Assembly: GCA_038143065.1 (NCBI GenBank)
Contig: JAYQLI010000012.1
Span: 1-64,000, forward strand
Length of the DNA stretch: 64,000 bases
Direction: 5' to 3'
Source: Rhodospirillales bacterium
GTDB lineage: Bacteria; Pseudomonadota; Alphaproteobacteria; Bin95
The notes beneath the pieces are model-generated. The model saw only the letters and a program-made list of their open reading frames with translations, did not search any database and was not told the DNA's origin. Each line of letters starts with the position of its first letter. Position 1 is the first letter of the stretch. Positions 43,296-64,000 of this stretch are shown one piece after another. A program made the translations under genes and the position numbers.

Positions 43296-44177
43296 GCTTT
43301 TGCCTTTCTCTGTGCCTGGATGCTGGCTACAACCAAAGCGATGAGTACCATCACGTAAGGCAGCATGCCAATCAGCTTGGGCGGCAAACCTTCAAGCTGA
43401 AGTCTGATTTGCGCAGCTTCGAGCGCCCCAAATAGCAGGCAAGCAAAAGCTGTCGTGACGGGATCGGTCGCGGCCGAAATAAAATGCCGCCAAAGCGATA
43501 AAGCCAGCCGTAAGCCCTTCATTAAATAGCCCAAGCGATACCAGCGCCAGATGCGCACCGGCAAGGCCACAAAAGAACCCGGCGCAGGCCGTGGTGAAAT
43601 CCTGAATGGTCAAATGCTGCAAAACCAGATCGCGCCATCTCTGAGGCGTTTCCGGTTGCGCGAATCCAAAGCCCGATACGTGTGCTGGCCAGCACAAATG
43701 GCAATAAACCAACTGTCATCCAAGCGAAAAGCGTCAATGGATCAAGCGCCGCAAGACTTGGTCCGACCAGTGGCACGACCTCAAGTCCAGCGGGCAGAAG
43801 CTTTGGCAAAAGCGCTACATCAGGAAGCCGCAGAGTGCCTGATGAGCGATACACCCAACTGAGAATGAAACCGAGTACACCGGCCACCAAAATGTTCAGA
43901 CCCAAACCAGCAACAATCATATTAGCTCCGGCGCGCGTAATACTGAGAGAGAACAGCCAACCAATTGCGGCGCTAGCCAAAGCTGCAGCCAAACAGGCGA
44001 TAATCCAACTGCCCGTGGCTGAGGATACAATCACAGCCACAAAAGCCCCGGCCAACATCTTGGCCTCAAGCCCGATGTTCACGATGCCGGCGCGTTGTTG
44101 ATCCAGCCCGCCCATTGCCGCCAAAGGATTGGCGTTGTTAACATGATTGCGGATGCGATTAGATGCTCAAACTGCAT
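43292..44177 (-). CDS. Nucleoside ABC permease 2 (frameshifted)
   Basis: RAGIVNIGLE, GFIALAA and LPYV motifs. Confidence 0.85.
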
Positions 44178-45205
44178 GGGTCTGCCTCCGTCTGTTCTTC
44201 ATAAGACGCGCGGCTTCGATGACGGCAAAGATCATCACTGTCCCTTGAATGATATTTACCAGTCTAATGGAATATTTGAAAAGAAGAGTTGGAACCGTTG
44301 TCCCGGCAGAGGCTAGAGCTCCGAATAGCACTGCGCCAAACAAAATACCGATCGGGTGGTTCCGTGCTAGCAAGGCCACGGCCATGCCTGTAAAACCATA
44401 TCCGGGTGAAAACCCGTCTGAGAAGCGATGCATCTGCCCCAACCCATGTGATGCACCGCCAAAGCCGGCAATCACGCCGGACAACACCATGACCAAAATG
44501 ATGACCGCAGGAACCGAGATCCCGACCGCACGCGCGAAGCGGGGGTTTTGACCCACCACCGCTCCCTCGAAACCTGAGGGTGTGTTGCGGCACCAGGTCC
44601 AGTAGGCAATGATGCAAAGTAGCCCGATGATGAAGCCTGCGTGTAATGTTGAGGGTGGCATCAAACGCTCAAGTTCAGCAGTTTCATGAATGAGCGGCGT
44701 GACGTTGTTTTCCGGATTGGGGTGACAGAAGGGGACCATTGACCAAGTACCCACTGATACCGGCTGCAATGAAGTTCAGCATCAAGGTTGAGACAACTCA
44801 TCCGCCTCATACTTTGCCAAAAGCACGCCGGGCAGCCATAGCCACAATCCGCCTGTTACTGCCGCAGCGATAAAAGCCAACGGGATAATTCCACTCCAAT
44901 AGACGCAGGGAGCGTGAATGCGACAAAAAAATTGCAGCCAAACCACCTAAGACAAACGCGCCATCCACACCGACGTTGAATACGCCTGAACGAAAGCAAA
45001 TGGCTGTGGCGACAGCGGTGAACAGCAGTGGCGTAGACGCAGAAAGTGTGGCCGCAAATCGCCGGACATTTCCGAATGCTTCTGTTGCCATCAGAGTAAG
45101 GATTTCAACTGGGTTTTCGCCAATTGTCAATAGAACAATGGCGGCAATGGCGAAAGCGAACAGCAGGCAATACAATGCCCAGACTGCGTTCAGTGCAGTA
45201 CCCAT
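44167..45205 (-). CDS. Nucleoside ABC permease 1 (frameshifted)
   Basis: FRSGVFNVG, G.NPRFA..G and GYGFTGMAVALLARNHP motifs. Confidence 0.85.
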
Positions 45206-46740
45206 TACTGCCGTCCCTGTACCACATCATCCGCCTGATCAGAGGCAGGTTGCTAGCGGGAGCGTTGACAGTGCCAACTATTGTTCCTCTGCAATGACAT
45301 TTTTGCGCGTGGACAGCTCAATCAGTTCGTCCAACTCCTCTGAGATTAACAGAACGGCTCCACCACTATCTCTGAAATCACGGATTAATTGGTGAATGGC
45401 AGCAATACCGTTTAGATCGACCCCGCGCGTGGGTTGCGATGCGATCAAACCTGAGGAGCAGTGGCGATTTCACGCGCAAACACAAGCTTTTGCTGATTTC
45501 CCCCGGACAGGCTGCTGACGGATCGGATGGTCCGTCGTATTTGATATCAAGCGCTTGCAGCCGATCCTGTGCAATCTTGCGCATTGCTGCTCGGTTTAGC
45601 CATACGCCATGGCCAATAGGGGAGGTCCTGTGGCTGCCTGCCACTACATTTGTTTCGATGCTAGACTGTATGCTCAAACCTTGACGGCGATCTGCTGATA
45701 TAGGGCAATGCCATGACGACGTCGTTGAGAAGGATTTAGGGCCGACAAAGCTATACCATTCAGCTTCACGAGACCAGAAGATGGTCGCAACCCGACCAAA
45801 CATTCAGCCAATTCGTTTTGACCGTTGCCTGACACGCCCGCTATGCCCAGAATTTCACCGCGGCCGATAGTTAAAGAGATGTTATGCAGTGTGGCTTCGG
45901 TTCACACTGCGTGTGTTCAAAGACGCAATACTCAGCAGCTCGGATTGCGGCTTAGGCGCCTCATCGTTTACGCCATCATGCAATTCGCCGTTGACAATGT
46001 GGCGTGAAATCTCATCTGCAGTGCACTCCGCGACAGAACTATGGAACAACCGTCTCACCTTGCCGGATGACAGTGACTTCATCTGCAAGTGCTGTAACTT
46101 CGCCAATCTTGTGGCTAATGAACAATAAAGCCGTTCCTTGCGTACGCAGATTGCAGGAGAAGAGTGAAGAGTTCGTCAACCTGTACAGGGCCAGTACCGC
46201 CGTTGGCTCATCAAGGATCAAAGTCCGACATCCCCGGCGCAAAAGGCGTATGATCTCGACAAATTGTAGAATATGGACGGGTGCGTTTGCTGCATGTTGA
46301 TCCCAGTCAATCAACGCGCCAATTTGTTCTGCCAAGGCTTGCCCTCTGGTTTCTGCGCGGCAGGCCAATCAATCAAGACAAGGGCCCGCACGACCGTTTG
46401 ACCGGCTCTTCCCCAAGAACGAGATTCTCTAATAACGAGAGATCGGGCGCGATCATAAATTCCTGATGCACCATTCCGATACCATGGCGCAGCGCGTCGC
46501 CAGGGTTGGTAAAGTCTACGCGCACACCATCGACGAAAATCTCACCCCCATCCGGGCGCTCAACTCCTTGCAATAGACGCATCAACGTGGATTTTCCTGC
46601 ACCGTTTTCGCCCACAACAGCGTGAATCGATCCAGCTTGTGTTGCAATTGACGTTGCGGTTTGCAACCACGGGAGCCATAGGTCTTTCGAAGTCCTACCG
46701 CTTGAAGCCCGGAAGAGGATGGTGGTGCGCGCAATGACCT
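45205..46740 (-). CDS. Sugar/nucleoside ABC ATP-binding protein, double domain (frameshifted)
   Basis: VGENGAGKSTL, ILDEPTAVL, ISHK, GVSGNGQ and QPTRGVD motifs. Confidence 0.88.
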
Positions 46741-46749
46741 AACCGCCTA

Positions 46750-47771
46750 ATTTACTGAAAGAAGTCAGGTAGCCTCGTTTGAAACATCCCAGACGTCAAT
46801 GTCGCCTGCAATGATTTGGGCTTTCATATCTTCCACTTTCTCCACATAACTGGCGGGGATGATATCTTTGGTATGCATCATGGGCGATAGGGCAACACCG
46901 TTTTCCGCCAGTCCAAAATGCATCACTTCGCCACCGGGAAACGTATCAGCCGCATAGTTGGTCACGATCTCATCAACAGCGACGTCCACACGTTTGACCA
47001 TGGATGTCAGTACATGCCCCGGGGCAAGGCCGTCCTGGTCATTGTCAACGCCAATCGCATAGTGACCACGCGCTTTGGCAGCTTCAATAATTCCAATCCC
47101 AGTGCCACCAGCCACTTGATACACGATGTCGGCACCATCATCAAACATAGCATTCGCCATCTGGGCGCCTTTTGCGGGATCACCAAAGCTATCCGCATAG
47201 GCAATTTTGATTTCGATATCTGGATTGACGGCTTCTGCGCCCTGGATAAAGCCAACAATGAATTTGTCGATTCCGGGCGCTTTAAAGCCCCCGATCACAC
47301 CAATGACAGCATCTTCATTAATCCCCTGAATCGATGTATCCGGCGTGACCTGCGCGGCCAAAGCCCCTGCAAGATAAGATCCTTCATGTTCACCAAACAC
47401 AACCGATGCAACGTTATCCCCTTCGCGGGTTTGGTTCATTATTACCCAGTTTGTATCTACATAATCTGGCCAGCGCCTCCATTGGCTCTCCGTGGATCCA
47501 CTCTAGTGAAATCACAAGCCCAAAGCCGCCATCAGCAGCGCGGCGCATGATCTCCTCGACCTGTGCGAAAACATCGGGTGACTCAATTGGACGCCCTGTA
47601 AATCCCGTTTTCTCCAGACCTGATTGAAGCCTGCATTCGCGGTATCGTTCCAGGACGCGTCACCCAGACCCCTTGGGCAATAATCAGTGCTGCGGGCCTT
47701 TCGTCCGCTGATACGGCCGTTGCCGCACAAAGCGCTATCGTTATTTTTGAAAGAAATTGCATTGCCTTCAT
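46750..47771 (-). CDS. BMP/PnrA family ABC substrate-binding protein (frameshifted)
   Basis: GLGDASWN, EHEGSYLAG, SFGDPAKG, AIGVD.DQ and TSMVKRVD motifs. Confidence 0.9.
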
Positions 47772-47774
47772 GGT

Positions 47775-48569
47775 TTATCTCCCTTTTGTAAGTTCCTTGT
47801 GGTCTTTGTGAATGCGGAGCGGCACTTGATAAGTCGTATGACGTGCCAAAGTTGTTTTGTAAGTGTACCGCTCGGCAGGATAGATGGCTTCGGCAACTTC
47901 CAGAAGCCTTTCATCATTCGAATAGGTCTGGCGCGTCACCACGGTGACTGCCGACGGGTCGTTAAGCGAGAGTGCTTGTTGTTCATGAGCCATTGCCAAA
48001 CGGGCCGTCACGATTTCAGATGCTGAGGCGATCTCATGCCCTGCATTTTGTAATGCGGAATACAAGGAAAACTGAGACTGATTGCCCGCAACCAGCGACT
48101 GCGTATCATGTTCTGAAAACTGTGCCAAAATTGCTTTGGGCACGAAACTTGAATGCAATGCTGCGGCCAATCCATCAACCAATCGAACACGCTCAAGACG
48201 CATCGCCGGTTCAAAACACCCAAGTGAGGCGCTGATTTGCCTGTCGGCGGTAGAAAATGACAAACGCGTTGCTCGGCGACATATCCTTGACCAGAAACGG
48301 TTTCTGTAAAACTCAGAAGACGCCCTAGGTCTCTCCGCAGATTTACTCCCGCAACAAATGTACCAGAACCCTGTTTACGGACGGCCAGCCCCTCTGCGAC
48401 CAAAAGTTCTACGGCTTTGACAACTGTTCCACGGCTGACTCCGTAGTTCCGGCTGAGTTCTGGTTCAGATGAGCATGCGGCTGCCCAATGGAAATGCACC
48501 ACTGGTTATTTGCTGACGCAGAATGTCTGCGAGGAACTGATATCTAGGCTGTCGTTTCAAGGCTTGCAT
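47775..48569 (-). CDS. GntR (HutC/UTRA) regulator (frameshifted)
   Basis: SEPELSRNYGVSRGTVVKAV...RKQGSGTFV HTH, followed by a UTRA-like domain. Confidence 0.88.
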
Positions 48570-49192: not shown

Positions 49193-49690
49193 GCAAAAAA
49201 TAGCAGATAAATTCGATCGCTGGTATAAACATAAAGATCTCACTGCAAATATAATCGATGAGATTTCCTTCTGCCGTTATTAACGGTACGAACATTGATC
49301 CAAGAATGTGTTTTGCACTCCATTCGGGCAAGAAATACATCTTGCCTGGCAATACAGCACGTCGACTTTGGCGGAGGGATATTGTGATTTGAATTTTTGG
49401 CAAAAGCCAAGTTATCGCAATACAGAGCCAACAAAACGCGCCTGAAGCCACTTGGAAGCTCTCCAAGACTCCAGTATAAAGCGCAGCGAAAGACTGGAGT
49501 GAGCCCAAAGTAGCCGTTGCTGCAAAGCGTCGACTGAAGGAATAAGCGGGAGGCTAAATCCTTTCCTCAAAAAGTGCAGAACATAGTGATTGGCCTGAGC
49601 CGTCAAAAGCTAAATGAGAAGCGTCTTCAGTTCGGCAGAAAACAAGGCAGCACCTCTTCAGGTGCCACCAGTCTGTTTCGGCCAATAATA

Positions 49691-51094
49691 CTACTTCAAA
49701 ATGATTTCCGGCCCCATGATGAGGTTGGGTAGAAAGGTCGAAATCCAAGGCACGTAGGTTACCAAGATCAAGAAAACAAAAAGAACGCCTAGGAATGGAA
49801 GCGCAGCCTTGACGACCGACATCATTGGCATGCCAGCAACGCCTGAAGTGACAAATAAATTTAACCCAACCGGTGGCGTGATCATACCAATTTCCATGTT
49901 AACAACCATAATGATACCGAGGTGAATCGGATCAATGCCCAGTTCTATCGCAATTGGAAAGACCAGTGGAGCGACAATCACAAGTAATCCTGAAGGCTCC
50001 ATGAACTGCCCACCAATCAGCAGGATGATGTTCACGACGATAAGGAACATAACCGGTCCGAAGCCCGCCGATAACATTGCATTAGCCACATGTTGTGGAA
50101 CTTGTTCATCCGTCAGAACATGCTTAAGAATGAGCGCGTTTGCGATTACAAATAAGAGCGTAACGGTGAGTTTGCCTGTTTCCAGCAGCGTGTGCTTTGT
50201 ATCGGATGGAAGAAAGCTGTCACCAGCGCCCAAGGCTGACGCCATAAAGAAGTGGTCCCTCTTGGACCCTCATAGGCAGCGGAAAGATCGCGCGGGCCTT
50301 TTTCGGCAAGTGGACCCATATCTTTGTAGATAAAGTTGGCAATGAAGAATGCATAGACCGCAGCAACCGCGGCCGCTGATTGGGGTGAATACCCCTCCAT
50401 AGATACCGCCAAGGATAATCACGATTAAGAAAAGGCCCCAACCGGCTTCGCGTCCTGAGGCAAAAACCTCTCTCCATCCTCGCCATTCGCCTTTGGGTAA
50501 GTTTTTCACCTTTGCAATGACATAAATCGCGGTCATAAGCATAAAGCCAGCCAAAAGCCCCGGGATGACGCCAGCGAGAAACATCCGTCCAACCGAAACT
50601 TCCACCGAAGCCGCATAGACAACCATCACGATAGAGGGTGGAATAAGAATTCCCAGCGTACCTGCATTGCAGATCACACCTGCAGCAAAATCCTTTGAAT
50701 AGCCAACTTGGATCATTCCTCCAATAACGATCGTTCCAATTGCCACGACAGTTGCTGGTGAAGAACCTGACAGGGCTGCAAACAGCATGCAGGCAAAAAC
50801 GCCGGCAATGGCCAGCCCACCGGGCAAGTGTCCGACACAGGCAATTGAAAACCGGATGATCCGCTGGGCAACGCCGCCAGTTGTCATGAACGAAGAGGCT
50901 AGAATAAAAAACGGGATCGCAAGAAGCGTATAGTGGCCCTCGAAGGCGCTGAACAGGGTTTGGGCCACTGATGCAAGTGAACTGTCAGAAAAGGCTAGCA
51001 GAAACAGCAGGGAGGACATGCCAAGTGCGACCGCGATCGGTACACCGATAACCAGCATGCCGATGACTAAGGTAAAAAGTAGAACAACTTCCAT
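49691..51094 (-). CDS. dctM: TRAP transporter large permease (frameshifted)
   Basis: LLAIPFFILA, SGSSPAT, LGILIPPS and EIGMITPPVGLNLFV motifs. Confidence 0.93.
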
Positions 51095-51761
51095 CAGGAT
51101 TTCTTTCTCAACTGCTCACGAGCATCTTGGATTTCATCTTCAACCTCATGACTGGCCACCAACCGGTCAGCCGCGCCGACCCAGAGAGCCCATGCAGCTT
51201 GCAGAAACCGGAAAAGCATCAAAGCCATTGACAATGGCAGAACGAGATATGGCAAAAGGCGTGGGATTTTCTCGTATTCTTCGCTTTCATTGAAGACAGT
51301 TTCCATCCATCCTAATATGGCGGGATGCGGGATGTCATTGACCTCGTACCATCCTTTGTCGCGGTACTTTTCTTCAAAACCGAGCGGAAACCAACGCCCC
51401 TCCGTGCCCGGCAGATTGGCGAAATTCGCCCAGTAGTCCCAAGCTCCTTTCAGCATTAGGAAAGCTGAAGGCAACGCATACAGCCACAGCAACCAACCCC
51501 CAAGACGCGGCGTGATTTCGAAGTTAGAATATTGACGACGATATCAACACCAAGATGTGAACCCTTTTTGACGGCATAAGAGGCGCCGAGGAGTACCAAC
51601 CAACCGAAGAGAAAGACAGTTAGCTCAAGAGCCCAAAGAATGTTTTTGTTGAACCCATACCGCGCCACGACGTTGGCGAATGTAATCAATGTCATTACGC
51701 CAAGAATGGCTGAGATCAACGTCTCCTCAATACGATCGGTAAACGATTTTGAGTGATTCAT
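51094..51761 (-). CDS. dctQ: TRAP transporter small permease (one frameshift)
   Basis: NVVARY...WALEL...LGASY...HLGVD motif. Confidence 0.9.
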
Positions 51762-51827
51762 AATTTAACTTTCCAAGCATGTTAGAAGGCGTCTAAAACG
51801 CCTCCGAACAGGTTGAATCAAGTGACT

Positions 51828-52820
51828 TTAATTAAGGGATTGTGCTGCGTTGATCATGTCCTGACCAACATCATCCGCGAATTGATCCCAGACTGGTTTC
51901 ATAACATCAACCCATGCCTGACGCTCTTCAGGCGTTAGAGTCCGAACTGTGCTGCCCGCCTCAATTATAGCTTGCCGGTTGGCTTGGTTTACAGCAAAGG
52001 ATTGAGCATTGCGAAGCTCAGTTACCTCGTTCAAGATCGTTAAAAACTGGTCGCGGACATCGGCTTCCAGGCTATCAAGCCAATCAACACTGGTCACAAC
52101 CAGATAGTCAATAATACCGTGGTTGGTTTCCGTGATACCGTCCTGTACTTCGAAAAACTTCTTACCATAAATGTTTGACCACGTGTTTTCTTGCCCATCA
52201 ACGACACCTTGCTGTAACCCACCATAGACTTCAGAAGGCCATTTTTTGTGGAGCTCCTCCGGAGTGCTTCCATTTGGGCCACCAAAACGTCTGACGACAT
52301 CACACGGAATTTAAGACCATTAGCGTCTGCTGGTGACATCAACGGTACATTAGCAGACATTTGTTTCATACCGTTATGCCAGAATGTCAAACCTTGAAGA
52401 CCACGCTTTTGCATACTGTCCAGCAAAGCCTGCCCAGCATCAGAGCCTTGGAATGCATCGACGGCTTCGATGTTCTCGAACATGAAAGGCAAGTCAAAGA
52501 TACGGAACTGTTTGGTGAACTTCTCAAATTTTTGACAGCGATAGGCGCTGCTAATTGAACATCATTCTGAAGCAATGCTTCAAGAACTTTATTATCGTCA
52601 TAAAGGGTTGAATTTGGGAAAACCTCCATACAGGCCTTGCCGTTCATCTCATCATTGACACGCTGCTCTAGCAACGTGGCTGCTATTCCTTTTGGATGTT
52701 TGTCAGTGTTGGTAACATGGCTAAATTTAATAACGGTTTCGCCTGTATCGCAAGCGGCAAACGCGGATGTAGCACCTAATGCAATGTCATCGATAATGCT
52801 GTGTTCAACAGAAATTTCAT
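51828..52820 (-). CDS. dctP: TRAP C4-dicarboxylate-type substrate-binding protein (frameshifted)
   Basis: FSHVT..KHPKG, VFPNSTL, FDLPF, GLKFRV.SS and DGQENTW motifs. Confidence 0.92.
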
Positions 52821-53000
52821 GATATCCTCCTTTGGTTCTTTTTACCGCGTTCCTGATTTCTTCTGGCGCGGCTTATGTTGGAAAGATTACTGGGATTGAC
52901 GCTGAAGATTAGTCGACAAAACTGTTCAGTTTTTACGATTAAATATTCAGGTTTAATCTGAAATAGTGGATAAAAATTAAACATACCCAGGGAGTTCAAA

Positions 53001-53913
53001 ATGTTTGAGGGTTTCGTGCGCGAGCGTATCGAAGGAGACGGTGCGACTTTGTTTGTTCGCCGCGCTGGACCTCAAGATGCACCTCCGCTTGTTCTTCTTC
53101 ACGGTTATCCGCAGACTTCCGCTATGTGGCACGGTGTGGGCACCAATTCTGGCACGCTCTTATCAAATCGTCTGTCCCGATTTACGCGGATATGGTCAAT
53201 CAGATAAACCAGTGTCAAATGCATCGCATCAGCCATATTCAAAACGTGCTATGGCCAATGACATTGTCGCTGTGATGCGGCGTTTGGGTCATGAACGGTT
53301 TCTGGTTGGCGCCCATGATCGGGGGCGCGGGTGGCGCATCGGATGGGTTTGGATCATCCTGATCGTGTTGCCGCCATGACTTTGCTCGACATCGCACCGA
53401 CCCGCGAAATGTATGCCAATACCAGTGTCGAATTTGCGCACGCTTATTGGCACTGGTTTTTCCTGACACAGCCAGACCCGCTGCCCGAAAAAATGATCGG
53501 AGCAGATCCCGAAACGTTCTGGAAGATGAAATGCTTTAAACAGGCAAAGCGGCGAAAATCCGTTTTCCTGCGAAGCTCTGACGGAATACCTGAGCGCCTT
53601 CGCAGAACCCCGACGCTATTCATGCAAGCTGTGAAGACTATCGTGCCGCCGCCAGATCGACATTGAACATGATGACGCAGATCAGGGTCGAAAACTCGAC
53701 ATGCCACTCTTGACGCTCTGGGCGAAAACGCGGAGTAATCGAAACATGCTTTGACGCACTTAGCACTCTGGCGGCAGCGGGCTGAAAGGGTTGAGGGCGA
53801 AGCGCTCGATACCTCTCACTATATGGCTGAAAGAAATCCCAGGTGACATAGCAGAGCGCATGTCTGATTTCTTTTTCCGCAATCCGATCCACGCAAAGGA
53901 AACTGCTCAATGA
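53001..53913 (+). CDS. Haloacetate/fluoroacetate dehalogenase-like alpha/beta hydrolase (frameshifted)
   Basis: LLHGYPQT..MW, AHDRG.RVAHRMGLDHP, DIAPT, AYWHWFF, CEDYRA and SHY.AE motifs. Confidence 0.85.
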
Positions 53914-55290
53914 CCCGCACGCTCTACGACAAACTGGTGGATAACCATAAGGTTTGCGATCTGCCCGATGGCGATATGCTGATTTATGTCGATTTTCACA
54001 TCATGAATGAATACACCAGTCCGCAGGCGTTTTCTGGTCTGGAAACAAGGGGTTAAGCGTCTGGCGTCCGGAGGCGCATCTGGCTGTGATCGATCATGTG
54101 AACGCAACCCGCAGTGTCGAAGCACATGATGCGGCAATCCAAAGCTGCTGATCGATAATTTGGAAAAAACTGCACCAAACATCAAATCGCATTTTACGGT
54201 TTGGGTGACCCGCGGCCAAGGCATTGAGCATGTTATAGTTCCAGAACAGGGCTTGGTCACGCCGGCATGCTGATAGCATGCGGCGATAGCCACACAACAA
54301 CCTATGGCGCCTACGGCGCGTTGGGGTTTGGCATCGGCACATCGAAGTGGAACATGTTCTAGCAACGCAAACGCTACGATATAAGCGTATGAAGACAATG
54401 CGCGTTATGATCGACACGAAAGCACCAGGCGTGACGGCAAAAGACATCATAATGAAGGTGGTCCAAGTCGTGGGCGCAGGTGGAGCCAATGGGTTTGCTG
54501 TTGAGTTTGCAGGTTCAGCCATTGTCGGTCTTGATATGGCCGGACGGATGACCGTCTGCAATATGGCGGTTGAGTTGGGCGCGCGTGCGGCGTTGATCGC
54601 AGCAGATGAAGTCACCGAAGCGGCGCTTACAAGGATACCCGCACAGCGGTCAATTTGCGTTTAATGGTGAAGACTGGGTCAGCGATTCCGGAGCCGTCTT
54701 TGACAAGGAGGTCACCGATTTCAGGGGCCGATATCGAGCCTTTGATCACATGGGGCACCAGTCCAGACCAATCAGTACCGATAACCGCGAATGTACCTTC
54801 TGCGTCTCGATTACGTCTCTCCCAAAGCCAAGGCGGCTTTAGCGCGGTCTTTGCAATACATGGGGCTCACAGAAGGGGCAAAGTCGGCCCAATCGATCAA
54901 AATCGACACGGCCTTTATTGGCTCGTGTACCAATAGTCGTATCGAAGATCTACGAGAGGCAGCCAAAATACTGGAAGGCCGGCAAGTCGCGGAGGCGTTG
55001 AAGCTATCGTAGTTCCTGGCTCCGCCATGACACGGATAAAGGCGGAATCCGAAGGTCTGCGCGCGATTTTGAGGACCGCAGGGTTTGATTGGCGACCAGA
55101 GGCGGGCTGTTCTTTGTGTCTAGCGATGAATGACGATATTGCTATGGAGGGGGAACGGGTAGCTTCATCGACTAACCGGAATTTTGAAGGGCGGCAGGGC
55201 CGAGGCGCACGCACCCATCTAATGTCACCCGCAATGGTCGCTGCAGCAGCCGTTTGTGGGCATCTGGCTGACATACGAGATTTTGAGTGA
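53910..55290 (+). CDS. leuC: LeuC-like aconitase-family dehydratase large subunit (frameshifted)
   Basis: [44 protein letters not shown] and [11 protein letters not shown] motifs. Confidence 0.9.
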
Positions 55291-55301
55291 AAGACAAACC
55301 A

Positions 55302-55901
55302 ATGATAAAAACTATTAAAGGAATCGCGCCCCTTGCCACTGGCGAATGTTGATACGGATGTGATCATGCCGAAACGGTTTTTGATTACAATCAGCCGCGA
55401 AGGCTTGCAGATGGTACCTTTGCCGATCTGCGCTTTGACGCAGCTGGCCAAAAGCGGCAAGAATTTATTCTAAATAAAACGCCTTGGACGCAAGCAACAA
55501 TCTTAGTTGTCGGAGATAATTTTGGATGCGGTTCAAGCCGAGAACATGCCGTCTGGGGAATGCGCCAATTGAAGATTGATGCCTGTATAGGAACAGGGTT
55601 CGCTGGGATATTTTATGATAATGCGCGTAAAAATGGTCTTGCTTTGCCGGTCGTATCTCCTGAAGTGCGAGACTTACTTTTACAATTTTCGGATAATCAA
55701 AGCGGCGCAGAGATTTCCATAAACCTTGAGCGCCGTATGATTGCCGCAGGTGAAAGTTCGGTGCCGTTCGAGATGGATGATACGCGAATAGCGCTGATCC
55801 GAGGCCGCGACGATACGCTTGACACGTTGAGCTACGCTTCTGCAATCCGCGAATTTGAGACTGGATTGGATGAAAAAATGCGGATAAGCGTTATAAAATG
55901 A
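55302..55901 (+). CDS. leuD: LeuD-like small subunit (frameshifted)
   Basis: NVDTDVIMP, NFGCGSSREHAVW and FAGIFYDNA.KNGL motifs. Confidence 0.9.
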
Positions 55902-56811
55902 ACCTGCAGAGGATATTGGATTGGACATAAGACAACTGGAGTGTTTCATCGCTGTCGCCGAAGAACTTCATTTCAGGAGCAAGCGAACGCCTAGGGCTAA
56001 GCCAATCCGCTCTCTCTGAACGGGTTTCTTCGTTGGAACACGAACTGGGCGCCCCGACTGTTTTTTAGAACTACTCTGACAAGTCAGTCTGACCCAAACT
56101 GGATCTGAATTTGCACAAGATGCAAAAAGGATCCTGACCGATATTGATAAATCGGTTTCCAATGTTCGCCACACCGCCGAGTCGGACCTTCACCACATTC
56201 GCGTAAGCGGTGTTGACGAGGCAATTTCGATGTTACTACCGCAGGTTCTACTGACATTTCGGCAGACCGATTTTAAGGTGCATGTACAGGTTCTGGAAAT
56301 ATCGTCATCCGAACAACATTCCCACGAGTTGATTGCCCATAGAACTGATGTGGCCTTCGTACGGACGCGCCTAGAAGATGACTTTATTTCCAGCGAACTT
56401 TTGCATCGTCAACCCATCGTAGTGGTCCTTGCCGAGACGATCCTCTTTCAAGATCGGTATCCCTGTCCATAGCAGACATCGCGGATCAACCAATCGTGGG
56501 TTACCCTAAGCACGCGCGACCAATCCTGCACGAGGCTTTGTGGAGTGGTTTTCGAAAAATTGGTGCCCAGCCAAATATAGTTGTGAGATTATTGACAAAT
56601 CCACCCTGTTGCAGTTTGTCGCCCCATGGGCTAGAATCGCCTTGGCACCAGCCTGGGTCAAGAATATTGCACCGCCTGGGATCTCTTTCGTCCCCTTTGA
56701 ACCTCCGAAAACCTGATCGATTTATAAGGTGGCATTTCGAAAGTCGGGTAACTCCGAGACTGTTAAAAGGTTCGTTGAAACCGTCAGAAAAAGCATTATC
56801 CAGGCGACTTA
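55898..56811 (+). CDS. LysR family regulator (frameshifted)
   Basis: DIRQLECFIAVAEELHF HTH start and DVAFVR motif. Confidence 0.85.
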
Positions 56812-57011
56812 ATTGCAAATATTTTTTGCCAATGGCTGCGTATTGCTTCGGCGCCTTTTTTGAAATTAAAACGTTATTAGGACTGGAAGTCAGCAACTTA
56901 TTAAGTAGGCGCAAAATTACGCTTTGTCCGCAAAGCAGACCTCAGGCATTGGCCTTGCGAATGTCTGATTTGGGTTAAGGTACAAATCGAAACGCTAATT
57001 ATGATTAAAAT

Positions 57012-57106
57012 CAGGACCACATTTAGACCGCTTTATAATTTCATCTTAAAAATAAGTAATTGTAATTAAATAGAAGTATATAAAGTACGACGTCCTTCTG
57101 GCACCA
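57012..57106 (+). repeat. Right end of island C: arm-like repeats plus degenerate tRNA-Leu 3' core
   Basis: About 95 bp homologous to 28561-28657, ending TGTAATTAAATAGAAGTATATAAAGTACGACGTCCTTCTGGCACCA. Confidence 0.85.
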
Positions 57107-57153
57107 ATACTTTTTCAGTATAACTTATTGAAATTCCTTCGAGTTTAACCATC

Positions 57154-58270
57154 ATGAGGGAGACCGTCGTGTCACACATTCCGTACACATTGTGCCGTTC
57201 AGGCACCTTCTATTATAACCGCCGTGTGCCTAAGCACGCAGTGAAAGCCTATGGTCCATTCATAAGGCAAGCTTTGTCTAAATGCCCTGAAGAAGCTGAA
57301 GCTTATGCAAAACGTCTGGGTAATGTATTGAGGGATCTTGGTGAATAATACGACAGACATCATCCCAATAGATGTTATTGCTGTCGTTAGTAGCTTTAAG
57401 CCAAGGCCAAGCTTGCTCTCTGATTACGTGAGTGAATACCTATCCCTTCGATCAGTCCATCATAAGCCAATCAAGGTAGCTGTAGACCCGTTCATATCTC
57501 TGGCTGGTGATAGAGATAAGTCAGTACGCACGTGAAGATAAGCTGTTTGTCCGTCTCATCTGAAATGAAAGGTAATAAGACTGCCACAATCAGAAGACGT
57601 ATCAATAGTTTGTCGCTAGTTCTCAACTATGCCTATGCAGAGCTGGACTTGATAAGCGTAATCCCTTCATGAGGCTCTTTATCAAAGGAGAGGGTGAAGA
57701 TAGCCATAAGCGAGGAACCTTTACCAATGAGCAGCTTAAATGGGGTTACGACAAGGCCTTAGCTTCAGGCAGTCAGACTGCTATACCATGCCTCTTTTAG
57801 GAGAAACAGGCTGTCATTAGCAGAGATCGTGGGGCTGAAGCTTGAAGATATCGATCTTGAGAATGACCTGATCCATATACGAGCCAATTCAGCAAGAAGA
57901 GAAGACGAGGAGCAGCCAGAGAACTCTTGCTCCTTAGTTGATGGCGCCATGCTGGCAATGGATCAAGACTATAATTTAGCTGCGGACGATACCCACCTAT
58001 TCCCAAGATATTAGAGATGGAAAGCGCCACGCATGCGTCTAATGCTTTGAACAAGTGGCTGAAGAAAGACTTTGATGGACTTACGGCACATTGCCTTAGG
58101 CATACATTCAGAGACCGTCTGAGAGCTGTGGAGTGCCCAATGGATCTGATTGATCAAATTGGTGAATGGAAATCAGTAAGTTCAATTGGGAATAGTTATG
58201 GGCTGGGGTATCGGATGGAGCTAATAAAGATAATTTTAGGTGAAATAATAGTAGATTATTTTTCAACCGC
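57154..58270 (+). CDS. Tyrosine integrase with DUF6538-like N-terminus (frameshifted)
   Basis: GTFYYNRRVP, ETG..LAEIVGL and AHCLRHTFRDRLR..IDQIG.W...Y motifs. Confidence 0.88.
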
Positions 58271-58310
58271 TCGGCTGCTTCCTCTGACGTTAAGTTAGAC
58301 CGAAAGGATG

Positions 58311-60228
58311 TTACTCAGGCATTACCGGCTTCCTATCAGAGTTTCTTTAGTCTCTGGAGAAATTCTTATCCGGGTTATACTTATTTTTCCTATTGCTCGC
58401 CTCAAAGAGGTCCATTCTTCTTTATATCAGGCTGGTAATTTCCACCATACTTTAGGTACGAATCTCTTGCCTCAGATTTCTGCTCTCTTGCATTGCAATG
58501 AAGGTTTTATCCCAAGAGCAATTGCTGTGATCCACCAAAAATATTGTTCATTTTCTGACAGATCCGTGGCTAATTTGTTCGCTTTATCATAGTTTTCAAG
58601 ATAAATTAATGCCATCGAGTAATTCAGCTTACATTAGCAGGCGGGTGTGGAGCTACTGCCAGAGCTTTTTCATAATTTTCAGAGGGATTTTTCAAACAAT
58701 CCGACTGTAAATAGGGAATTTGCAGCGGCCAATATACTGATTATCCCACGTGGATTTAAATCAGCCGCTTTTATAGCGTACTCTTTGGCAACTAACTTAA
58801 TTTCTTCATCATTGTACCTGGAAATTCTTTGTGGCTGTTTAATCATCAATCCAGCTAATAAACTGTAGCCGTCAGAAAGTTCAGGACCATATTTTACTGC
58901 TCTTTTTGCAACAGAAACCATGTCTCCTGAAATGTTCCAGTCTCTGTCAGGCTCTACACCGCTTGAGCGGTAAAATACCAAGCATACATAGATAACACTA
59001 GTGGGTTATTAGGTTCAGTTTCAAAAATTTCATCAAAGAGCAAACCAGCTTCTTTGACGCCCTCTAGAGAGAAACAGTTGCCAAAGGAATTCGCCTTCAA
59101 ATATCGTTGCCAATTTTCAGGGCTTTTAAAATATTTTCTGGTTTCTTCAAAAGACTGGTCCATCGTAAGTTTGACTTGAATTTATTCAGTATTTTTGAAG
59201 AGATATATCTTGAACCTCAAAGATATCCGTCAATTCAAAGTCATATTTTTCTGACCAAATAATCTTCTGTTTAACGATGTCTGAAAGTTCAACTGTGGTT
59301 CGTATTTTATTACCAGATATCTGATTTGATCCTCTTTAAAACATAATTCACGAGATAGTTTTCTTTAATTTCCGCATCAGAATAACCTGTTTGATGAATT
59401 CGCTTGTGTTGCTTGATTGCACCAGCAAACGGGGATAACCAGACAGAGATGAAATAATAATATCCGTCATTCCTTTGCTCAATTGATCGTCAGCACTGTC
59501 ATCAGATCTATTTTCAAATGGCATGACTAAAACCATGGCTCGATCAGGACTCCTGATATTAATTGCTTGATATCTTTTTTTAGTCCGATTTTCTTTAGTG
59601 AAGTAAAACGAAGTACCGATTACGATTGCCATCGCAATTAAACTAAAAAGCGCTAAAAGCATGCGGGGGTTATTGGACCTGTTAGTCTTTATTTTCCGTT
59701 TTTGATTAGGATTTAAGATTATGTCATATGCGTGGAACTCATTTTGCTTAACCTTTTGAATACCTAAGTCGTTAAATTCATACTTAGGTCTTACCTTGTT
59801 ACGAAATCATAGATTGCCTTAGATACTGTTATTCCACCGCTCTGTGCTAACGCTTGAGCCTTGCTGCAATGTTTACCCCATCACCTAGGAGGTTTTCTTT
59901 TTCTTTTACCACATCGCCTGAGTTGATCCCTATGCGGAACTCTAGCTTTACTGTGGTATACTCAGAATCATTCCTCAATTTAATAGCATTTTGAAACTCT
60001 ACAGCGCATTCAACTGCTGAGACTGCACTTGGAAATTCCGCCAGGTGGAACTCCACCCGAATTAAATAAACGGCCCTTATGTTTTTCAAATAATGCAGTT
60101 AGGATTTTCTCGCAGGCTCGAAGATTTTTAATCGTGCCGCTCTCATCTGCTTCCATGTGTTTGCTATATCCAACAACATCGGTAACAAAGATGACTGCTA
60201 TCTTACGTTCAATTTCTTCTTCAAACAT
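58311..60228 (-). CDS. Class III adenylate/guanylate cyclase with TM, TolB-like and TPR regions (frameshifted)
   Basis: TDVVGYS, EFRIGINSGDV...GDGVNIAARL, a TM helix, VLVMPFEN..D...L..G.TD.II..LS, and a C-terminal MPE*. Confidence 0.85.
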
Positions 60229-61072
60229 AGCTCGCCACACATGAAATTTTTTCATGTTTAGCATGCCGTGTTGTACAGAGTGTCTATAAGAACGTAGGGA
60301 AATTTATGCACACTGTCGCAATAAATGACAAATCACTTGCTCTACTTCCCATTTTTGACGCCTCTTATAGAAAGTACACCTTAGGGGTAAATCTATTATT
60401 GCTATATACCCGAAAGTATAGTACGGTTTAGGTATGCATTTGAGCACCTGATGAGAAACGTGTGCAAATGCCAGTAACCGCAAAAAAGCGATCTGCAATC
60501 CTGACATTGATGGAGTTAGCCCACATTAGATGTGGCGCTTGCTTTTACATTTGAAAAATCAAAAATTGAAAAATAAAAGCCAGAACTGATCATCATCTTG
60601 AAGGTTTATTACATATCTCAAGACATTCCAGTAACCGCCTCATTGAATGTCGAGATCACATTCAGTGGATCCTCCAGCAGCGAGATAAGAACGTTCCCCC
60701 GATGGAGAGGGTATTTACTATTTTCTGAACACGCACTTTATGTCCCGCATCTTTGAACGGTTGGCTTGGATGATGGAGTTGTTGGTAAAGCTTCCAGAAC
60801 GCTTTGAGAGCCGTTTTAAGACTGTTCAGCGTGAGCAATCAAATCTGATGACATAGTCATGGCTACAGACAGAAATCTATTCGAGGACAGTTTTTCTAAG
60901 CTGCATGATGGTCATAATGTTAGGATAGTTAGGCGGTCAGCATGAGGCCACTCATCGCCTGAAGTAGACTGTGCACCCCTTTGGTGATACGAAAAAAAGA
61001 CAGCAGAAGGCGGCTTTGGGTGAAGCTTGTTGATCTTAAAGCTCCTTCTCCCTTTAAAATTGGAAGAGATGA

Positions 61073-61266
61073 GAAGCTTAAAGTTGCTTAAAGTTGCTTA
61101 AAGTATATCCTTTAAGAAGAATCTCTATCTTTTTTATCAAAGTTAGAATTGAAAGCTTAAGGCCTACTTTAAGAGATACTTTAAGTAGCTTTAAATCATT
61201 TATCATCTCAAAATATAGAAGATAATAAAAAGCTTAAAGGTGAGATGTAAGATCCAACTTTAAGTA
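61073..61266. repeat. GCTTAAAG/CTTTAAG short-repeat tract
   Basis: Three tandem GCTTAAAGT units plus several CTTTAAG copies in a non-coding AT-rich stretch. Confidence 0.6.
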
Positions 61267-61428
61267 CTCCGAGGCTCCCAGCCAAAGACACTCTTTGTTT
61301 CTTCTGTCGTACCCCCGATGTATTACATTTCCTATACTAGGAACGACAAGGATCAGGCGCCTGTAAGCCAACCTATATACATTACTCAGACGTTTTTGAT
61401 GAGCCTCTGCAAACCAGCAACACCATAT

Positions 61429-61664
61429 TGGTTAACACACCCCCAGCTCACCTCACTGTCAAAGTCCAAGTATATATAACGGGCACAGGGGGTGTGGCCC
61501 ATGCGTACCACGCTGGGGTTCGTTATCGTTGGGACATTAAGGATGTGAGCGAAGGTAAAGATAGGGGCGTTCTCTTCTAAGGGTGTCACCGATGTCAGGT
61601 GAAAACAAAATTTTTATAATGTTTTTCTTTCAGAAAACTTTTGGTTTTACCTGACACACACACC
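61429..61664 (+). repeat. Conserved module copy 2 (61429-61509) fused to primase 3' tail and ori-like IR copy 2 (61512-61664)
   Basis: First part matches 15707-15787; second part matches 12681-12837. Confidence 0.85.
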
Positions 61665-61749
61665 CGACAATTGCCGGTTTTAACGGTTTGCTTTCAGAGT
61701 ATAAAAACTGAAAATAAAAATTGAATTTTCGATAGAAGGATTAAAAATA

Positions 61750-62808
61750 ATGGCTCCATTAGAGACTACAACAATCGGTGCCTTCCTAAGCCCAAGTATG
61801 TTCCCATTCGAGATTGGTTTGATCTGTCTCGTGAAACTGGAGGAATGAATACTGCTTGAAACGACGAGGATGTATTCAAGAGACATAAAGAATCAAGACG
61901 CTCATGAAGATCTCTTTTAAAAGCTACCAAAGAGATTTTGGATATTCAGCTTAGATCTGGAATTTCAATTCTACAGATGAGGTTCGTCGTGAAAATTATA
62001 TTCACTACCATTGCCGTCATTTAGATGGTTTTGATTTTGAAAGTTTAGAACATCGGGTTCTTACGTGATGGCGCATATGAAACCGACCTGCCGGCAATCA
62101 GAAATAAAATTAGCCATTCGGGGAAAGAGCTACAGTGTGCACGATTATGTAGCCAGTCAGAATTTGAGCTCCAAACCAGTAAAATTTACCTTACCAGGAC
62201 CTTTGACGATAATGGATACAACAGCAGATTGTTTTTACAACGATCGTCCAAAGTTAAACGCAGCCTTGGCGGAAACAGTGAATAAGGAAATCCTTTCGCT
62301 GGTCGAAGCAGGATGTAAATTACATCAGATTAAGATGAGCCCTGTTTGCTCGCTCGGTAAAGGATGCACTGGGCTTTGGTATGGAGGGATTAGAGAGATG
62401 CTTTCATAATGAATCTGACTGAACACGAATTGTTCATATGTGTTGTGGTTACCCTGATCTTGATGATGATGATTATAAAAAAGCAGATCCAACAAGTTAC
62501 CATCAACTTAGTGAAGCAATTGATGAAGCAGCATTTGATCAGATTTCGATCGAGGACAAGCATTGCTGTAATGATTTGACACTTTTAGAAAGGTTTCAAA
62601 AAATAAGACTGTTATTTTTGTGCTGTCGCAATAGCATCCAGCCGCCTAGAAACGGTCGACGAAGTAAAGAACGGCTTCAAGCAGCAATGAACCATATCGA
62701 CCAAGAGATCGGCTAGTAGTTGCTCCCGATTGTGGGTTAGGCCTCCTTTCACCAAAACTAGCTGAGGATAAATTGCGTGTAATGTGTCAGGCGGCAGCAC
62801 TTATTTGA
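61750..62808 (+). CDS. Cobalamin-independent methionine synthase II (MetE C-terminal domain) family protein (frameshifted)
   Basis: TTTIGAF, RRENYIHYHCRHL, KFTLPGPLT, HMCCGYP and PDCGLG motifs. Confidence 0.85.
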
Positions 62809-62824
62809 TGCCGACAAGAAGGCC

Positions 62825-62857
62825 AGATCATCTTCAAAGCCAGATGATCTTGACTTT
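62825..62857 (+). terminator. Possible intrinsic terminator
   Basis: AGATCATCT-N8-AGATGATCT hairpin just after the MetE-like stop; weak T tail. Confidence 0.4.
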
Positions 62858-62870
62858 AATCAATCTTTAC

Positions 62871-63122
62871 AAACTGGTTAACACACCCACAGCTCACCTC
62901 ACGGTCAAAGCCCAAGTATATATAACGGGCATAGGGGTATAAGCCCATGCGTCCCATCTTTGTGGTACCACTTATTGTATCGAAACATGCTACCCACGCT
63001 TTGGAATGAGTTTTACGAAATAGCTACATCGAGTGATCTAAATCTATAGTCCACTCTTGGATCTTGTCACATTTATTTGGCTCATATTGGTACACATCAA
63101 GGGATAGGCCATATGTTGACAG
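62871..63122 (+). repeat. Conserved ~250-bp non-coding module, copy 3
   Basis: Aligns with 15703-15955. Confidence 0.85.
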
Positions 63123-63192
63123 ACAACTTTATTGATGTGACTAATATTTCAAGCGGTTTAAAAGTTCTGAAAATTCAAAATACTGAATAGAT

Positions 63193-64000
63193 ATGAAAAT
63201 TACATTAAGGATAATCATTCTCTTAGGGGTTTTTGCTCATCTGACACCAGCTCTACTTCTGTCTTACACTGATTACTCCAGCGAAGACGGATCTGGAAAA
63301 CAATTTCAACTTCATGATTGATCAACCGCAGAGAATGTGACAGGCGCTTACGACTTGGTTGAAGTCGGATTTCGGATTTTGTCACTGAGTTTGGAAAATC
63401 AAATGCTTAGTGCCTTTGAGCCTTTTAAGGCTGCATATTTTGAGGTTAATGGTGAGGTTTCTAAAATTGATTTAGCTGAACTAAAAGAAGAGTTGGGCGA
63501 TGAAGTTGATTTTGTATATAATAGACGAACATGGTGTCATCATACACAACATTTGAAAAGGATTTAAATCTAGATTTCTCAAAAGTTGCACCAGGCTTCA
63601 ACAAAACTCCAAGAAATAAGAATGATAAAGTCAGTATCAGGTAGTAAGATCATGTCTCCAAATGAGACCATTACTGGTAATGTTCGCAAATGCCCTGCTG
63701 GGCACTCCTGACAAAAAGTATATTCTAGAAAATTGGTATAAAATCATCTCCCAATTTGAGCACCAGATTATTTAAAGATCTTGATTTATTGAAAATTTCT
63801 AGTGACTTTGAACAATTTAATCCAGATCTCAAGTCAGTTATCATTTTTAATGGAAATGGAAAAGTAGCGAATAAACCTGATTTTGCTGTTATGAGATCAA
63901 AGAAAGTAACATTGTAGATGTTTATGAAAGTGGCGAGCGGCTTGATATTGATAGGGTATTAAAGCTTCTGAAAAATGGATTTATGTTAAAGCTGATATTG
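63193..64000 (+). CDS. Hypothetical exported protein (frameshifted, partial)
   Basis: MKITLRIIILLGVFAHLTPA signal-like start and ORF fragment 63337-63567; no family recognised. Confidence 0.35.

Follow-up and report, generated by a model that had tools for sequence, protein, structure and literature searches.

This region is one copy of an operon that is self-contained and horizontally mobile and that encodes a hydrolase of the fluoroacetate-dehalogenase family, a LeuC-like and a LeuD-like protein, and a LysR-type regulator, usually with a divergent dctPQM transporter. The operon is widespread in marine Roseobacter-group bacteria and other Proteobacteria, and intact copies appear to be present in cultured strains, for example Planktotalea frisia SH6-1, Pelagimonas varians DSM 23678, and Shimia abyssi DSM 100673. 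The reading that we adopt, with a probability of about 40%, is that a substituted C4-dicarboxylate would be imported, hydrolyzed to a hydroxy acid, and then dehydrated, that the LysR protein would induce the genes, and that the breaks in the genes of this copy are technical. Homologues of fluoroacetate dehalogenases are common even where no source of fluoroacetate is near, and what they act on in nature is a standing question. Their fixed association with a LeuCD-type enzyme and an importer of C4-dicarboxylates leaves a small set of candidate compounds that can be tested.

Seven genes and a palindrome were located in the window, which is the whole stretch of 64,000 nucleotides that was analyzed. 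The gene boundaries are based on homology to an intact relative, locus L009, whose matches on the plus strand run over 53001-53910 (hydrolase), 53910-55287 (LeuC-like), 55287-55898 (LeuD-like), and 55921-56809 (LysR).

49694..51094, minus strand: dctM, TRAP large permease (tblastn with the intact L009 protein; NCBIfam TIGR00786 on the L009 orthologue)
51097..51761, minus strand: dctQ, TRAP small permease (tblastn with the L009 protein)
51831..52901, minus strand: dctP, TRAP solute-binding protein with a C4-dicarboxylate-type site (tblastn; structure matches; mapped residues)
52937..52958, no strand: palindrome GATTAAA-N8-TTTAATC, candidate LysR operator, in the divergent promoter region between dctP and the hydrolase gene
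53001..53913, plus strand: alpha/beta hydrolase of the fluoroacetate-dehalogenase family (tblastn with the L009 protein; family matches)
53910..55290, plus strand: LeuC-like large subunit, Fe-S dehydratase (tblastn with L009; family matches)
55287..55901, plus strand: LeuD-like small subunit (tblastn with L009; GCGSSREHA present)
55921..56811, plus strand: LysR-type regulator with start TTG at 55921 (homology, tblastn with L009)
49478..56940, no strand: 7.46-kb block present twice in the assembly (blastn against the organism's own genome; pairwise alignment)

The preliminary description had placed dctMQP on the minus strand and the hydrolase, leuC-like, leuD-like, and lysR genes on the plus strand, and this placement is borne out, as are the family assignments (by Pfam, NCBIfam, and homology). 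Pfam Abhydrolase_1 matches fragments of the window hydrolase, and the LysR_substrate domain matches a fragment of the window regulator, while the complete regulator of L009 has matches to LysR-family models in NCBIfam. The overlap described between the hydrolase stop and the leuC start corresponds to ATGA at 53910-53913. The overlap described between leuD and lysR holds only with an ATG at 55898, which is out of the LysR frame, and the start indicated by homology is the TTG at 55921, 20 nt past the LeuD stop. The window contains no open frame for any of the seven genes.

The palindrome GATTAAA-N8-TTTAATC is unique in the window, and 0 of 100 shuffles match it. The pattern GATTAA-N10-TTAATC occurs once each in 43 of the 244 fetched loci, 5' of the hydrolase start where the position was checked. 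The palindrome is conserved before the operon and is a candidate operator for the LysR protein. An integrase-like fragment and AT-rich DNA adjoin the block. Terminal repeats or IS ends were sought at the block borders, and none were found there.

The pairing of the hydrolase with the LeuC-like protein, first noticed in this window, is conserved. Among the counted loci, which are related to one another and not independent, the hydrolase gene lies directly upstream of all 61 LeuC-like orthologues (69% identity or more) with upstream room, and LeuD and LysR are found downstream in 56 of 57 and 55 of 57, respectively. In a second LeuC group, with 55-64% identity and with members from Pseudomonas, Ewingella, Agaribacter, Porticoccaceae, and Azospirillum, 9 of 17 loci carry a hydrolase homologue no more than 6 kb away. 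When the loci are anchored on the hydrolase instead, LeuC is directly downstream in 44 of the 74 with downstream room and not in the other 30, some of which keep DctPQM. This asymmetry fits a hydrolase that acts first. Two related loci carry an unlinked hydrolase gene directly beside a divergent gene of the isopropylmalate/tartrate-dehydrogenase family, whose score of 224-228 bits is below the leuB cut-off (353). A DNA search of the genomes of 30 relatives matched leuCD paralogues at 64-81% identity and dctPQM at about 70% in one genome of the same class, and it gave no match for the hydrolase part. A literature search for a published description of a hydrolase paired with a LeuCD-like enzyme found none, in agreement with the earlier statement that no described pathway with it was known.

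Judged by its sequence, the hydrolase belongs fully to the fluoroacetate-dehalogenase family, and no catalytic, carboxylate-binding, or leaving-group residue of these enzymes is missing. The residues cited at the outset as typical of these enzymes are kept, and HGYPQT (at 53100-53117), GAHDRG/ARVAHR (which gives D-R-G-A-R), YWHWFF, CEDY, and SHYMAE are all encoded in the window. These motifs are spread over three frames, and a 1-nt shift at 53320 falls between the G and the A of D-R-G-A-R. The reading frame of the window hydrolase is not intact, with frame-shifting indels (8 in all) that are probably technical. The residues H34, G35, and P37 of the oxyanion motif HGxP are invariant in 108 of 108 aligned hydrolases, as are D106, R107, R110, D130, H151, W152, Y213, and H272. 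We take the Asp to be the nucleophile, the two Arg to hold the carboxylate, the His-Trp pair and the Tyr to form the pocket for the leaving group (halide), and the remaining His and Asp to be the base and the acid. D106, R107, and R110 align with the D-R-G-A-R of 3r3u, and H151, W152, Y213, H272, and D130 align with the matching residues of the same structure.

Matches of the hydrolase to solved fluoroacetate dehalogenases have E values of 4.9e-94 to 4.7e-74. The fold, HGxP, D-R-x-x-R, and pocket are shared with the enzymes of EC 3.8.1.3 (3r3u and its series, 1y37, and 9c9f) and their relative 3qyj (Alr0039). In contrast to those enzymes, the window family shares a constant operon with a LeuCD-like dehydratase, usually beside a C4-dicarboxylate importer, and its activity is only predicted. 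The cap segment also differs, with P-T-R-E-M-Y here and P-T-Y-E-Y-W in 3r3u.

The transporter has the P, Q, and M components of a DctP-type C4-dicarboxylate TRAP system, and DctP has the salt-bridge residue Arg169. Matches of DctP to solved structures have E values of 5.8e-101 to 2.2e-93. Nine site residues of DctP/IctP from Pseudomonas aeruginosa have been named (PMC12599236), and seven of them are kept here (V34, K41, S91, K94, R169, F192, and N209). The other two are changed, Q171 to M and L234 to I, and both changes occur in other solved DctPs. The three components and seven site residues are shared with P. aeruginosa DctPQM/IctPQM (PMC12599236; 9dsy, 9ht3), while the two substitutions and the position divergent to a hydrolase operon set the window system, whose ligand is putative, apart. 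DctP keeps a C4-dicarboxylate pocket. The site would suit a substituted dicarboxylate, but it would suit plain succinate or malate equally well. In addition, DctPQM is optional, being divergent upstream in 41 of the 55 loci with room and missing from 14. A site like that of ordinary succinate/malate binders and the loci without DctPQM suggest that the transporter may be generic.

A generic transporter is part of a different explanation, in which the operon places two unrelated jobs under one regulator. The hydrolase would detoxify bromo-, chloro-, or fluoroacetate, while the LeuCD-like pair would independently hydrate or dehydrate an ordinary dicarboxylate, for example maleate, citraconate, or D-malate, brought in by DctPQM. 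This seems somewhat unlikely. Its hydrolase half agrees with residues that are exactly those of fluoroacetate dehalogenases and with top solved relatives that bear this name. A residue signature parting LeuCD-linked from unlinked hydrolases was looked for among the 108 aligned sequences, and none was clear, with two weak positions at 180 and 252. This leaves room for an ordinary haloacetate dehalogenase, and together with the nearest solved relatives it suggests that the hydrolase may act simply on haloacetates, which would be turned into glycolate, not a substrate of LeuCD-type enzymes. The DctP site and the 30 of 74 hydrolase loci that lack an adjacent LeuCD are also consistent with two jobs, and marine Rhodobacteraceae are reported (PMC5437341) to be enriched in another class of haloacid dehalogenase. 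However, every one of the LeuC-like orthologues with upstream room (61/61) shares an operon with the hydrolase, with overlapping stop and start codons, and hydrolase homologues accompany the distant second LeuC group as well. Linkage that is so tight and so often repeated is unusual for unrelated functions.

In the reading that we adopt, the hydrolase and the LeuCD-like pair would act on the same compound in succession. DctPQM would import a C4-dicarboxylate with a leaving group on the carbon adjoining a carboxylate. The leaving group could be a halogen, as in 2-halosuccinate or 3-halomalate, or the oxygen of an epoxide, as in epoxysuccinate. The hydrolase would displace it by SN2 attack of its Asp nucleophile and so form a (2R)-hydroxy dicarboxylate, for example D-malate or a tartrate. 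The LeuCD-like Fe-S enzyme would then dehydrate this product, as isopropylmalate isomerase does with (2R,3S)-3-isopropylmalate. With meso-tartrate, for instance, the product would be enol-oxaloacetate, which would enter central metabolism. The LysR protein, acting on the conserved palindrome, would induce both divergent units.

The proposed logic, hydrolytic opening to a tartrate followed by dehydration, is that of the route in which epoxysuccinate hydrolase and tartrate dehydratase convert a substituted C4-dicarboxylate to tartrate and then to oxaloacetate. To our knowledge the enzymes of that route belong to other families, and no hydrolase of the fluoroacetate-dehalogenase type or dehydratase of the LeuCD type has been assigned there. 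We also know of no abundant natural halo- or epoxysuccinate in seawater. A bolder version, which we consider unlikely, is that oceanic enzymes of the fluoroacetate-dehalogenase family do not act on fluoroacetate and that, with a LeuCD-type dehydratase dedicated to the purpose, they make up a route of two steps, so far undescribed, from a halogenated or epoxidized C4-dicarboxylate of natural origin (for example 3-halomalate or epoxysuccinate) through tartrate to oxaloacetate. If this is true, organohalogen or oxidized dicarboxylate carbon would have a hidden sink, since the module is on a mobile block in many pelagic Roseobacters.

The order of the two enzymatic steps is not fixed by the data, and placing the hydrolase first fits the gene arrangement. 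In the reverse order, the LeuCD-like enzyme would hydrate a halomaleate-type dicarboxylate to a halomalate, and the hydrolase would then remove the halide to give tartrate. LeuCD-type enzymes such as maleate hydratase and isopropylmalate isomerase hydrate maleate-type double bonds, and 3-halomalate offers the leaving group beside a carboxylate that the hydrolase needs. Nevertheless this order is quite unlikely. The hydrolase gene is first in the operon and also occurs without LeuCD, which fits the hydrolase as an obligatory or first step, while LeuC-like orthologues never occur without the hydrolase (0 of 61). Tartrate would also need a further enzyme, and none is found in the block.

The frame breaks are confined to this assembly. 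Most likely they are errors in its consensus sequence, and the organism therefore probably has a working copy. Relative to L009, 39 frame-shifting indels break all seven window genes (2 in DctM, 2 in DctQ, 8 in DctP, 8 in the hydrolase, 10 in LeuC, 2 in LeuD, and 7 in LysR), and dctM also has one in-frame stop. A search of the organism's own genome with blastn found a second copy of the block, reversed and 96.6% identical (G000:C8:2881-10355), and a partial third copy (C50:58878-59913). The C8 copy has seven frame-shifting indels, with none in leuC, leuD, dctP, or dctQ, although its dctP has one in-frame stop. The window indels are absent from contigs of four marine metagenome studies, each represented by one run. 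When the metagenome contigs were aligned to the window, the 12 indels listed all coincided with frame-shift sites, and 11 of the 12 were seen in all four runs. Run X2 has no contig depth at 54209-54457, and this cover gap was not counted as evidence. One natural contig differs from positions 55407-56861 by 6 substitutions and 13 gaps. Third codon positions account for 136 of the 204 substitutions between the window copy and the C8 copy and for 88 of the 138 that are private to the window, and the latter proportion indicates purifying selection. The metagenome contigs without the indels, the C8 copy with its fewer indels, and the third-position substitutions together support assembly error.

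The same breaks could instead be real, the marks of a cluster of pseudogenes in decay on an island that is degenerating, although this is rather improbable. Decay would agree with damage to all seven genes, with the adjoining integrase-like fragment and AT-rich DNA, and with long-ORF cover that is patchy on the small contigs (7-91%) compared with 84% on the main contig. It would also agree with the scarcity of homopolymers of 3 or more, which adjoin only 13 of the 39 indels and make a homopolymer cause weak. However, natural loss would not give 39 indels with so few first- and second-position changes, and it would not leave the sign of purifying selection in the window-private substitutions. 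Four independent studies yielded contigs lacking the indels, and split genes are found on the main contig too. An alternative genetic code as the source of the short ORFs was dropped, since the genes are broken by frame shifts rather than by a single stop codon that recurs. The small contigs of this assembly carry many false frameshifts, and their gene calls need care.

The LeuCD-like pair is a paralogue distinct from the housekeeping enzyme. Like isopropylmalate isomerase, it belongs to the two-subunit aconitase family. The three Fe-S cysteines attributed to the LeuC-like protein are kept, with codons for GSCTNSR and GCSLCLAMN present in the window, and codons for GCGSSREHA of the LeuD-like protein, which includes the shared GSSREHA, are present as well. 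A separate housekeeping leuCD, whose existence the preliminary description had left to be confirmed, adjoins rplS-trmD-rimM on contig C35. The window contig has no match to the LeuA or LeuB family, in line with the earlier remark that neither gene is nearby, and all such matches are on C35. A quick tree of 59 rows places the LeuC-like proteins together in a single clade (SH-aLRT 99) and the alphaproteobacterial housekeeping proteins in a separate one (100). It is very improbable that the pair serves leucine synthesis as a spare isopropylmalate isomerase, with the hydrolase as a passenger, even though LeuC and LeuD of L009 exceed their NCBIfam cut-offs (576.8 bits versus 560.25 and 148.2 versus 116.25), given the separate clade, an identity of only 51% to the genome's own LeuC, the lack of leuA and leuB on the contig, and the location on a mobile block that also carries an importer and a regulator of catabolic type. 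Other LeuCD-like enzymes are maleate hydratase and dimethylmalate dehydratase. The LeuD-like protein differs from housekeeping LeuD in its N-terminal loop and its C-terminus.

The block at 49478-56940 carries dctMQP on the minus strand and, on the plus strand, genes for a hydrolase of the fluoroacetate-dehalogenase family, LeuC-like and LeuD-like proteins and a LysR-type regulator. The genes were placed by six-frame reading and by tblastn with the intact proteins of L009, the corresponding locus of a close relative.

Genes at 49691-56811, placed by tblastn with the L009 proteins
49694-51094, minus strand: dctM
51097-51761, minus strand: dctQ
51831-52901, minus strand: dctP
53001-53910, plus strand: alpha/beta hydrolase
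53910-55287, plus strand: LeuC-like gene
55287-55898, plus strand: LeuD-like gene
55921-56809, plus strand: LysR-type regulator, with a TTG start at 55921

Pfam and NCBIfam, applied to the window fragments and to the intact L009 proteins, bear out the families assigned in the preliminary description, and the overlap it reported at the hydrolase-leuC junction (stop with start) is present as ATGA. The overlap proposed for leuD and lysR does not hold: the ATG overlapping the leuD stop is outside the LysR frame, and homology favors the TTG at 55921. The motifs named earlier are all encoded, but those of the hydrolase are spread over three different frames. Left of the block (43500-48500) there are a broken GntR/UTRA regulator, a Bmp/PnrA-type ABC binding protein, and fragments of a branched-chain-type ABC permease.

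The seven genes in the window are not open frames, and the breaks are most likely technical, resulting from consensus errors. The longest ORF in the region has 274 amino acids, and compared to L009 there are 39 frame-shifting indels (DctM 2, DctQ 2, DctP 8, hydrolase 8, LeuC 10, LeuD 2, LysR 7). The block was aligned to Logan contigs, which are assembled rather than raw reads, from four marine runs of four studies. All 12 indels listed, out of 66 indel rows, coincide with frame-shift sites found against L009; 11 of these were seen in all four runs and the other in both runs covering that place. A natural contig differs from 55407-56861 by 13 gaps and 6 substitutions, and this dominance of indels suggests consensus error rather than divergence. 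Real decay of the window copy into pseudogenes, which concerns the state of that copy and is compatible with the functional readings, is improbable. Third codon positions hold 136 of the 204 substitutions between the window copy and a second copy on contig C8, and 88 of the 138 private to the window copy, indicating that the window allele evolved under protein-level constraint, at odds with a gene dead long enough to collect 39 indels. The errors look random, with only 13 of the 39 indels beside a homopolymer run of at least 3. Long ORFs cover 84% of the 2.86-Mb main contig (C35) and a patchy 7-91% of the 51 small contigs, and split genes occur on C35 too, for example an acyl-CoA dehydrogenase (L090:3333-4481). 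Gene calls in this assembly require frameshift-aware handling.

The second copy (C8:2881-10355) is 96.6% identical to the block, with 210 substitutions and 51 indel events. It has only 7 frame-shifting indels, none of them in LeuC, LeuD, DctP, or DctQ, and its DctP has one in-frame stop. A mosaic produced by recombination between two alleles appears a better account of the two copies than simple duplication. Their divergence is very uneven, with 103 substitutions in LeuC, 1 in LeuD, and 8 in DctM. The 51 small contigs have mosaic segments in common at 80-99% identity.

The pairing of hydrolase and LeuC-like genes is conserved in scans anchored on either partner. A scan with a hydrolase fragment found 80 loci, predominantly from marine Rhodobacteraceae; a LeuC-like gene lies directly downstream of the hydrolase in 44 of the 74 with room and is absent there in 30. 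The intact C8 LeuC also found 80 loci, 63 of them with LeuC identity of 69% or more. Among these near loci the hydrolase is directly upstream on the same strand in 61 of 61 with room, LeuD is next in 56/57, LysR follows in 55/57, and a divergent upstream DctP is found in 41/55, all being counts of related loci and hence non-independent trials. Where DctPQM is missing, the four-gene core adjoins a serine recombinase, DDE transposase, or TctA transporter gene. At 55-64% LeuC identity, a hydrolase homolog occurs within 6 kb in 9 of 17 loci (Stutzerimonas, Ectopseudomonas, Pseudomonas, Ewingella, Agaribacter, Porticoccaceae, Azospirillum, and one Rhodospirillales MAG), and the transporters differ, being TonB-dependent receptors or an SNF-family carrier. 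Two Porticoccaceae loci (L155, L162) have LeuC-LeuD-acyl-CoA dehydrogenase-amidohydrolase with a TonB receptor, an SNF carrier, and a dehalogenase-like hydrolase. In single-cell alphaproteobacterial genomes (L024, L032, L034, L049), dctPQM and a hydrolase (77-80% identical) occur, but downstream a MaoC-like and a rhodanese gene take the place of LeuCD-like genes.

The hydrolase closely matches solved fluoroacetate dehalogenases. In phmmer searches 3qyj had an E value of 4.9e-94 and 3r3u of 2.1e-77, with entries named fluoroacetate dehalogenase between them. Matching residues in the 3r3u alignment are D-R-G-A-R, the L-D-I Asp, H-W, the C-E-D-Y Tyr, and the base His, whose roles and numbering follow the literature on these enzymes. 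These residues and HGxP are invariant in all 108 aligned hydrolases (71 near-linked to a LeuC-like gene, 8 far-linked, 29 unlinked), and linked and unlinked proteins differ at two discriminating positions only, both weak.

The binding protein DctP has C4-dicarboxylate binders as its nearest solved chains (E 5.8e-101 to 2.2e-93). A study of 9dsy (DctP with succinate) and 9ht3 (IctP with itaconate) gives the site as V34, K41, S91, K94, R169, Q171, F192, N209, and L/V234 (PMC12599236). L009 DctP retains 7 of those nine residues; Q171 is replaced by M, as in 4o7m and 4mx6, and L234 by I, as in 4o94. The pocket is predicted to fit a C4-dicarboxylate with a small substituent at most. A palindrome, GATTAAA-N8-TTTAATC, at 52937-52958 is a candidate LysR operator; it is unique in the window and matched in 0 of 100 shuffles. 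Of 244 fetched loci, 43 contain a single occurrence of its relaxed form; where the hydrolase start is mapped, this form precedes it by about 40-65 nt. One locus without DctPQM has it as well.

The gene content suggests uptake, SN2 hydrolysis, and dehydration of a substituted C4-dicarboxylate, a tentative scheme with a probability of about 40%. Asp-nucleophile hydrolases of the fluoroacetate-dehalogenase subfamily attack the leaving-group-bearing carbon beside a carboxylate. Import of a succinate or malate bearing a halogen or an epoxide would be followed by SN2 hydrolysis to D-malate or a tartrate. Dehydration would follow, for example of meso-tartrate to enol-oxaloacetate, a step whose stereochemistry would make it the exact analog of 3-isopropylmalate to 2-isopropylmaleate. 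The near LeuC-like gene is always accompanied by the hydrolase while the reverse is untrue, suggesting that the hydrolase makes the substrate of the LeuCD-like enzyme. It is doubtful that the block holds two independent activities sharing one regulator, and unlikely that the two steps run in reverse order. (2R)-Hydroxy dicarboxylates are substrates of LeuCD-type and LeuB-type enzymes alike, and in two related loci an unlinked hydrolase gene abuts a divergent LeuB-type gene of the isopropylmalate/tartrate dehydrogenase family (L068:7680-9682, L070:7623-9640), converging on it with a 4-nt overlap. That gene scores far under the leuB cut-off.

The L009 orthologs of the LeuCD-like pair exceed the curated LeuC and LeuD cut-offs. 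The pair is very improbable as a spare leucine-pathway enzyme with the hydrolase as passenger: in a quick-search tree of 59 rows the 28 linked-near LeuC rows and the C8 copy form a single clade (support 99), separate from the alphaproteobacterial housekeeping clade (support 100) that includes the genome's own LeuC. A housekeeping leuCD is present on C35 next to rplS-trmD-rimM. Every LeuA- and LeuB-family match is on C35, in agreement with the earlier remark that neither gene is near the block. C35 also has a lone LeuD and a third LeuC paralog (L090:4482-5903; C35 about 906.5-907.9 kb), which adjoins acyl-CoA dehydrogenase, Rid-family, and SDR genes.

All the component families are known. Neither their fixed grouping nor its substrate has been described, and a full-text literature search found no description of the hydrolase and LeuCD-like pairing. 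A different enzyme, (S)-2-haloacid dehalogenase, is reported to be enriched in marine Rhodobacteraceae (PMC5437341), which makes organohalogen use plausible in that group but does not bear on the hydrolase-LeuCD module.

The block behaves as mobile accessory DNA, based on the lack of a match to its hydrolase part in the 30 relatives' genomes searched, the source of its nearest copies compared with that of the host chromosome's closest LeuC matches, and an integrase-like fragment and AT-rich flank. The host chromosome's LeuC has its closest matches in uncultured marine alphaproteobacteria (L165, 100%; Rhodospirillales-type genera, 71-76%). L009/L108 holds the nearest copy of the block (95% LeuC identity), and Roseobacter-group genomes come next. 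To the right, at 58017-58298, lies a weak phage-integrase-like match (E 3e-4), and 57000-64000 is AT-rich (36-43% GC) without long ORFs, probably marking an island border. Most carriers are alphaproteobacterial, whereas the MAG holding the L009/L108 copy bears the label Gammaproteobacteria; the discrepancy stems from lateral transfer or from a binning error.
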